Assembly: GCA_046483985.1 (NCBI GenBank)
Contig: JAWOCD010000112.1
Coordinates: 1 to 28,566, forward strand
Reading direction: 5' to 3'
Length of the DNA: 28,566 bases
Source of the DNA: Promethearchaeia archaeon
GTDB taxonomy: Archaea; Asgardarchaeota; Lokiarchaeia; Sigyniarchaeales; SOKP01
Below the pieces are notes generated by a model. It did not search any database and had not been told where the DNA came from. It worked only from the letters and a program-made list of their open reading frames with translations. Numbering within the stretch: position 1 is the first letter of the stretch; each line of letters opens with the position of its first letter. Below, one piece after another: positions 2,008 through 2,812 of the stretch. Made by a program: the position numbers and the translations under genes.

Positions 2008-2812
2008 ATGAAACTTATATTTGATGAAAAATATTATAATTCATCCTATGCAGCAGATCCCGCCGCTGCTCCGGGAAGAATTAAGAGCATTATGGAAGTA
2101 CTCGATCAACACAGGGATATGTATGAGAAGATCTCCCCAGAACCTGCAACCGAAGAGCAAATTCTTAGAGCACATACCAGAGATCATTATGAACGGATCA
2201 AACGGAGATCGGAACTCTTTGAATTAGCAAAGTTAGCGGCGGGGGGAGCAATTACGGCAGCCCGAGAAGGTTATAAAGGAAATCCTACTTTTGCTGTGAT
2301 TCGTCCTCCGGGACATCATGCCTCAGCTGGCTCTTGTTGGGGATTTTGCTTCTTTAACAATATGAGTATCAGTTTATTGGAACTCTTTACTCAAAAAAAA
2401 ATTGAGTCTGCATTTATACTTGACTTCGATTTGCATACAGGAGAAGAATTATATATTTCATATAATCTCTTGAAATGGTAATCTTAACATTCTTGCAAAT
2501 CGAAATGATGGTTTCCGGGTAAAGATTCTCAATCCGGATGGAGTAAGCAATACGGCTTATATCCAGGAAGTACGGACCCAGATGGAAAAGTTAGAGGATA
2601 TTGACATCATTACAGCATCTGCAGGTTTTGATCAAGGAAAGGAAGATTGGGGGCATCTCTTAACCCCCCAAGATTATACCTCACTCGGGGCGATGATGAA
2701 AGAGTTTTCTGAAAAATTGTGTAATGGGCGAAGATATGCTATTTTGGAGGGCGGATACAACCACGATGTGCTTGGACATAATGTTCAAGCATTTTGCGAA
2801 GGATTTAAATAA
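2008..2812 (+). CDS. Zn-dependent histone deacetylase/AcuC/APAH-family protein, join(2008..2443,2475..2812), 257 aa after removal of a 31-nt insert
   Basis: First part has RPPGHHA, GFCFFNN and LDFDLHTG. A shifted frame, open from 2477, gives GNLNILANR...SAGFD...LEGGY. Removing 2444-2474 yields DFDLHTGDGN and a single 774-nt ORF. Confidence 0.9.
2444..2474 (+). other. Candidate bulge-helix-bulge (BHB) intron in a protein-coding gene
   Basis: Central 4-bp helix CAGG(2438-41)/CUUG(2469-72); 3-nt bulges AGA(2442-44) and AAA(2473-75); inner stem AG/CU plus AUUAUAU/AUAUAAU. Cutting after the second nucleotide of each bulge restores frame and motif. Confidence 0.8.

Follow-up and report, generated by a model that had tools for sequence, protein, structure and literature searches.

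The gene for a compact HDAC-fold protein in the window (the whole 28,566-nt stretch of DNA that was analysed, part of the Lokiarchaeia genome studied here, G000) is interrupted on the forward strand by a 31-nt insert at positions 2444..2474, which we consider, with a probability of roughly 0.85, to be a protein-free mRNA intron of the BHB type that is spliced by EndA and RtcB and carried as an optional passenger. The insert has defined boundaries and its removal restores the reading frame, inserts recur at the same base in relatives with their pairing retained, and an EndA-alpha and two rtcB genes are encoded in the genome.

In the proposed mechanism, the transcript would fold so that two 3-nt bulges flank a 4-bp helix formed by exon and intron; the tRNA-splicing endonuclease EndA would cut each bulge behind its second base, and RtcB would join the exons to give a full 257-aa Zn-dependent amidohydrolase; we infer that this cutting and ligation take place in vivo. 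The intron would be tolerated because it is spliced, with its fold kept by selection, and would be gained and lost among relatives, at least sometimes via short recombination tracts. It would be one of at least 6–7 such introns in G000 and have no special regulatory job.

The interrupted gene and its predicted product

Exon 1 (2008..2443, +), assigned by profile match and orthologue alignment to a compact HDAC-fold (PF00850) amidohydrolase, carries the motifs RPPGHH (His at 2314-2319) and GFC and the Zn ligands D141 (2428-2430) and H143 (2434-2436), and exon 2 (2475..2812, +) supplies the rest of the Asp146 codon, the third Zn ligand D198 (2630-2632), the catalytic Y240 (2756-2758) and the stop codon. 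The insertion point (phase 1) lies after base 1 of the Asp146 codon, within the motif DLHTGDG, two codons beyond the D-x-H zinc-ligand motif and not immediately after it as an earlier note on this DNA had placed it. Read through without splicing, the frame from 2008 encodes the N-terminal 145 residues of an HDAC-family protein and then terminates at a TAA (2479..2481, +) after 157 aa, the remainder up to 2812 being in another frame. Both the SAGFD Asp (D198) and the LEGGY Tyr (Y240) lie in exon 2, which has no internal stop, and are lost from the unspliced product, as the note had said, supporting its view that no enzyme can be made from unspliced mRNA. When the 31 nt are removed, a 257-aa ORF ending at 2812 is obtained, the translation of which can be aligned over its full length to 28 uninterrupted orthologues (45–69% identity).

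PF00850 matches both exons, the motifs align to those of HDAC6, and the restored protein has the double His, the Asp-His-Asp Zn ligands and the XGGY Tyr of the HDAC family, together with the HDAC fold as judged from an orthologue model. The model, predicted for an intronless orthologue (pLDDT 90), superposes on Pseudomonas aeruginosa HDAH (5g11) with Z 29.5 and an rmsd of 2.0 Å over 246 aligned residues. In KpHdaH the Zn ligands are Asp181, His183 and Asp269, the Tyr is Tyr313 and the charge-relay residue is Asn186 (PMC11532494); by this numbering D141, H143, D198 and Y240 are the predicted Zn ligands and catalytic Tyr, in agreement with the roles that the note had given the latter two, the HDAC6 alignment and the orthologue model pointing the same way. 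Asp146 itself probably occupies the His charge-relay position, matching KpHdaH Asn186, according to its D141+5 spacing and the HDAC6 motif alignment. The spliced product is predicted to be an active Zn-dependent amidohydrolase.

The records of the relatives used for comparison are labelled Promethearchaeota or Promethearchaeia, which equals Lokiarchaeia, and no congener of G000 was in the genome set compared. At columns that are at least 95% conserved, G000 keeps the consensus throughout (43/43 in exon 1, 25/25 in exon 2; 68/68 in total). Dividing the identity of exon 2 by that of exon 1 gives 0.95, the same as in intronless relatives (0.94 ± 0.05). The values of pN were 0.23 for exon 1 and 0.24 for exon 2 against pS of 0.79 and 0.82; with dS saturated, dN/dS is not computable, the pN/pS of ~0.29 is an upper bound only, and a cross-genus comparison of this kind is blind to very recent decay. 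Within these bounds the gene looks alive, with both exons intact and equally constrained and all catalytic motifs kept, which sides with the earlier claim that it is functional rather than decaying.

Five further HDAC-family genes were found in G000, all with open frames, and a close orthologue of the interrupted gene is absent in ~11 of 41 relatives. The orthologue in G023 (L019, contig C266) is broken by a 10-nt microhomology deletion that takes out the D-x-H motif, being either a real lesion or an assembly collapse; an intron was ruled out for this copy. Members of the compact HDAC family that are 64–73% identical were also found in records labelled Spirochaetota and Deltaproteobacteria (L273, L278, L289, L308-L332), which suggests, from sequence similarity, exchange of the family between domains. 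None of ~19 bacterial-labelled homologues has the insert, an absence that is not significant at 5% prevalence. Elsewhere in the window, a DUF362 protein gene (2914-4245, -) is convergent with the HDAC gene and lies near the orthologue in 18/80 genome loci; a PK_C-like protein gene (1259-1843, +; weak match) is also a neighbour, a lamin-tail-domain protein gene (2-889, -) is cut by the contig end, and two P-type ATPase-like genes (4419-7307 and 7472-10345, -; ~960 aa, DKTGT in the translation) form a tandem pair. A sigma-70 promoter scan was discarded as unsuited to archaea.

The insert and its predicted BHB fold

The insert, which could also be written as 2445-2475 since one A is shared, contains 5 G+C in 31 nt and no ORF, and this single A is all that resembles a target-site duplication, as described previously. 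All elements of the fold are on the forward strand. The 5' strand of the central helix, CAGG (2438..2441), is exonic and is followed by a 3-nt bulge (2442-2444) with a predicted cut between 2443 and 2444; the 3' strand, CTTG (2469..2472), is intronic and is followed by a second 3-nt bulge (2473-2475) with a predicted cut between 2474 and 2475. The inner stem consists of 2445-2447 paired with 2466-2468 and 2449-2454 paired with 2460-2465, closed by a 5-nt loop, and outer pairs join 2436-2437 to 2476-2477. A 4-bp central helix, two 3-nt bulges on opposite strands and flanking helices (3+6 inner and 2 outer pairs) are therefore all present, and cutting after base 2 of each bulge yields DLHTGDGN, the exact motif of the orthologues. 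Among shuffled or random genomic 31-mers placed at the same site, a frame-restoring 4-bp helix with 3 inner pairs arose in 0.2%, and in 0.06–0.1% when the 2 outer pairs were added. No second copy or source of the insert was found in G000 (best match at most 24/31), and a group I/II ribozyme core or mobility protein is absent, the insert being a single 31-nt hairpin without an ORF.

In naked-RNA prediction, the minimum-energy fold of the G000 copy is a slipped 7-bp non-BHB helix, and the BHB register lies 4.2 kcal/mol higher. Predicted pairing within an 81-nt window is 12% for the central helix but 0.1–0.2% for the first inner pairs; because of this preference for the slipped fold, splicing may be less efficient. 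The BHB is the best predicted fold in the 30-nt sister intron (L183) and in L213 and L234, and the G000 copy has one A more than L183 and reads GGA in the exon in place of GGG. These two changes favour the slipped fold and could be read as damage, the site being a true intron site in relatives, with a BHB in G000 so impaired that it is poorly or not spliced and the gene a young pseudogene. The EndA-beta gene not found in the assembly, the dispensability of the gene (the relatives that have no close orthologue, and the G023 deletion) and a rather long terminal branch (0.37) would fit such a reading; however, the 4 central, 3 inner and 2 outer pairs all remain, neither exon has a lesion or has lost a conserved column, the exon identity ratio is normal, the EndA-alpha has the loop linked to relaxed substrates (PMC5829648), and six other BHB-like inserts in G000 imply working splicing. 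We consider a damaged copy improbable and retain a spliced intron as the preferred reading.

Inserts at the same site in relatives

Inserts at the same nucleotide were found in at least nine homologous loci (6/80 metagenome loci and 3/80 GTDB loci). Across 154 genomes of the order, a pattern search limited to short matches detected the insert in G044, G056, G106 (twice), G144 and G153, some of these probably being the same genomes as those of the metagenome and GTDB loci. The idea of a gain unique to G000 was thus overturned. The same-site inserts are 28, 29, 30, 31, 32 or 33 nt long, fall into four sequence families and represent all three frame classes, and the unspliced frame of every carrier stops within ~8 codons, including those with in-frame 30- and 33-nt inserts. 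The two matches in G106 (contigs C15 and C155) are related 32- and 33-nt inserts with a compensatory change, and the insert in G144 (C271), from another genus, is identical to the 33-nt insert of G106, reflecting either transfer or a binning error.

Helix pairing was maintained in the seven loci that were aligned (42/42 helix cells, compared with 17–50% in slid controls), and a compensatory two-sided change was observed, exon CAGG occurring with intron CTTG and exon CTGG with TCAG, TCGG or CCAG; a shuffle control for this covariation was borderline (24/500), and the loci are related. In the 32/33-nt family one position of the central helix is a G-A mismatch, which leaves 3/4 pairs. The motif ACW-GGR precedes the cut in 7/7 carriers but in only 15/101 non-carriers, and therefore the exon has to supply its part of the helix. 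Intron identity between G000 and L183 is 29/31, compared with 0.46 at synonymous sites, and among gene pairs of 87–91% identity it reaches 29/29, 30/30 and 33/33, again exceeding conservation at synonymous sites; this would reflect either selection keeping the stem, implying that splicing matters, or recent spread.

AT-rich hairpin inserts can be footprints of transposons, and hairpins can stimulate recoding, and on such general grounds the insert might never be spliced at all, being bypassed or frameshifted during translation, or being a transposon footprint or an assembly error. A single ribosomal frameshift cannot explain all carriers, since all frame classes occur at the one site, and splicing can. 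In G000, a +1 shift could take place only after the stop at 2471-2473 and before the one at 2479-2481, and the metal loop would gain 10 residues from it, and a footprint has neither a target-site duplication nor a second copy in the genome to point to. Assembly error is unlikely because a 78-nt contig from a second, public DNA run (X1) is identical over 2427-2504 including the insert, its left flank being only 17 nt. We give the unspliced readings almost no weight and prefer splicing of a BHB intron. The same run also contains a pair of contigs with a 30-nt overlap placed precisely at 2475, and a further contig that continues past 2435 with 19 loose letters; at a depth of 2–3 and with no contig spanning the exon joint, these ends could come from an intronless allele present there. 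A single RNA run was found (X2, in which the share is small); it covers 1828-2108, short of the junction, and no exon joint was seen in it.

Patchy distribution, gain and loss

The intron is absent from 101/108 homologues in the tree (>90%), on which the carrier label requires at least 4–6 changes (six in all, four of them forced by strong branches) and clusters no more than in shuffles; monophyly of the five close carriers was rejected (p-AU 0.0002). Carrier L234 and intronless L018 share 97.5% DNA identity. In two independent pairs, a carrier and its nearest intronless relative differ mainly within 10 codons of the junction (synonymous identity near the junction versus elsewhere 5/15 vs 32/38 and 8/16 vs 34/39), as would be left by a short recombination tract, and two other carrier/intronless pairs had no significant drop near the junction. 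An ILANR tract is unique to G000 and L183 among the 108, with a 22-nt identical run starting 10 nt after the junction, as a transfer of the intron with its flank between them might leave; however, the two may also be monophyletic (p-AU 0.45), and a test of the flank gave no significant result.

This distribution bears on the proposal of the earlier note that splicing acts as an on/off switch coupling deacetylation to tRNA-splicing capacity, under which splicing efficiency would be tuned and deacylase output would report that capacity. The early stop of the unspliced frame in every carrier, even where the insert is in frame, would suit a switch, as would the slipped fold of the G000 copy, which could limit splicing, and a negative-regulator role has been proposed for the cbf5 intron (PMC2738675), which is still a proposal according to PMC7714728. 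Against this, the intron is not conserved across the lineage, most homologues being intronless and the carriers not monophyletic, its presence varies between 97.5%-identical alleles, and four unrelated intron sequences occupy the one site. Splice dependence is also not specific to the deacetylase because any frame-breaking intron gives it (dnaG, EF-2 and iorB among others, which have no common function), and the cell would not depend on this intron for deacetylation because the five other HDAC-family genes are open. Survival bias alone would account for its position in a catalytic motif, provided that inserts persist there only when they can be removed precisely. Although a regulatory role would be of greater consequence, little speaks for it, and we regard it as unlikely in comparison with an optional passenger.

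Splicing enzymes and other BHB-like inserts

G000 encodes an EndA-alpha with the Tyr/His/Lys triad and a crenarchaeal-type loop with its Lys, and two rtcB genes. A loop of this type has been reported in Asgard alpha2beta2 EndA and tied to relaxed substrates (PMC5829648). The beta subunit was not found in the assembly (97% complete) and is present in 24/24 relatives; an assembly gap is the simplest explanation.

The earlier note had also suspected that other split genes hide similar micro-introns, and six further genes with BHB-like inserts were found in G000. The single-copy archaeal dnaG has a 38-nt insert (G000:C13:29821-29858, +) with a GGCC/GGCT helix, and canonical cuts restore the motif of the uninterrupted dnaG of the relative G024. 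Inserts of 30–31 nt with a 4-bp helix and 4–10 inner pairs, the excision of which restores a long frame, occur in one of two EF-2 paralogues (G000:C115:48042-48071, +), iorB (G000:C4, 3684-3714 in reverse-complement count, -), AMP phosphorylase (G000:C32, 12894-12923 in reverse-complement count, -) and a WecC-like gene (G000:C45:48366-48395, +), and a relaxed 29-nt insert in VIT1 (G000:C32, near 49000, +) likewise restores a long frame; these five were judged by structure and frame alone.

A motif-free homology census, for which 2.78 of the 4.6 Mb of G024 (~1,230 proteins) served as reference, returned two frame-breaking inserts of 31–38 nt in G000 (dnaG and the HDAC-fold gene), both BHB at their best excision, and four of 29–32 nt in G024, three of them with a full 4-bp helix; the five genes judged by structure and frame were missed because their orthologues are outside the 2.78-Mb part. 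The remaining breaks in the census, which had no BHB, were 1–4-nt frameshifts, repeat or IS-like genes and gene fusions. In reference-free BHB scans canonical cuts were no commoner than shifted cuts, so that these scans served to supply leads only, and in-frame insertions with a weak BHB (33/947, 3.5%) were rejected, their frequency being equal to the chance rate.

The four G024 inserts (L043, L062, L065 and L086, all -) are BHB-like and interrupt genes that are intact in G000, one of them an acyl-CoA ligase, and the intron sets of the two genomes differ. The WecC-like intron of G000 and the L043 intron, which is in a different gene, have a near-identical ~17-nt hairpin core, hinting that intron sequences may be reused between genes. 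Probable tRNA T-loop introns at G000:C37:91461 (+), C37 88167 (-) and C108:3239 have AAGA...TTGAA ends like those of the HDAC-gene intron, with different inner hairpins; ARAGORN made only ~29 tRNA calls in G000, several of them doubtful.

We entertain only tentatively the broader idea that the tRNA machinery of Lokiarchaeia splices many coding mRNAs and that the 30-nt introns make up a protein-free, mobile class with intergeneric spread via short-flank recombination, to which we are led because four intron families use one site and because two genera share a near-identical intron together with its downstream tract. [quoted passage not shown] Because carriers coexist with near-identical intronless alleles, the question of how BHB introns come and go, left open in a 2026 preprint on Asgard tRNA introns (10.64898/2026.10.13.758758), can be addressed directly at this site. 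The single-copy dnaG and one EF-2 of G000 appear to need the same splicing step as the HDAC-fold gene. Annotation pipelines would truncate such genes or label them pseudogenes.

Comparison with known systems

In IRE1/RtcB splicing of HAC1/XBP1 mRNA, which is a true switch under regulation, the intron is conserved and the nuclease is a dedicated one controlled by a signal. As proposed for the HDAC-gene intron, an endonuclease and a tRNA ligase remove a short mRNA intron and so restore the frame, whereas neither a signal-controlled nuclease nor a conserved intron was seen for the HDAC-fold gene. This splicing is named in PMC13149111. The classical Zn-dependent deacylases (HDAH/AcuC/APAH; PF00850; PMC11532494) have the HDAC fold, RPPGHH, GFC, Asp-His-Asp and EGGY in common with the predicted product, which at only 257 aa differs from HDAH in aligning to its residues 5-329 with ~70–80 loop residues missing.

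Non-canonical multiple tRNA introns in Asgard archaea and Thermoproteales (PMC11291895; 10.64898/2026.10.13.758758) resemble the present case in being ~30-nt BHB introns with repeated recent gains and an unknown route of arrival; the passages searched deal with introns in tRNA genes only and mention none in mRNA. Within G000 the likeness extends to the ends of the T-loop introns, although their inner hairpins differ and no copy exceeds 24/31 matches to the HDAC-gene intron. The HVO_1309 intron of Haloferax volcanii (PMC7714728) is, like the one proposed here, an EndA-processed BHB intron in an mRNA, but it is in the 5' UTR and leaves the reading frame unbroken.

The closest counterpart is the cbf5 pre-mRNA intron of Crenarchaeota (Watanabe 2002; Yokobori 2009, PMC2738675), which is also a short BHB intron in coding sequence, placed between bases 1 and 2 of an active-site Asp codon, with lengths that vary in frame class, a hetero-oligomeric EndA (predicted for G000), lineage-specific absence and the proposed regulatory role referred to above. 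In the literature searched, endonuclease splicing inside archaeal coding sequence is documented for cbf5 only, which PMC7714728 describes as the only other example besides the Haloferax 5' UTR intron. In cbf5 a single gene is involved, with one ancestral gain and few losses over two orders, and splicing has been demonstrated by cDNA, whereas the intron described here has an Asgard host and a non-essential enzyme as its carrier, is present in <10% of homologues, where it occurs in four sequence families, has counterparts in many genes of the same genome and is predicted to be spliced. The HDAC-gene locus adds an Asgard case with strong comparative support: the chemistry is the same as for cbf5, and what is new is the phylum, the many genes per genome and a presence that varies between near-identical alleles.
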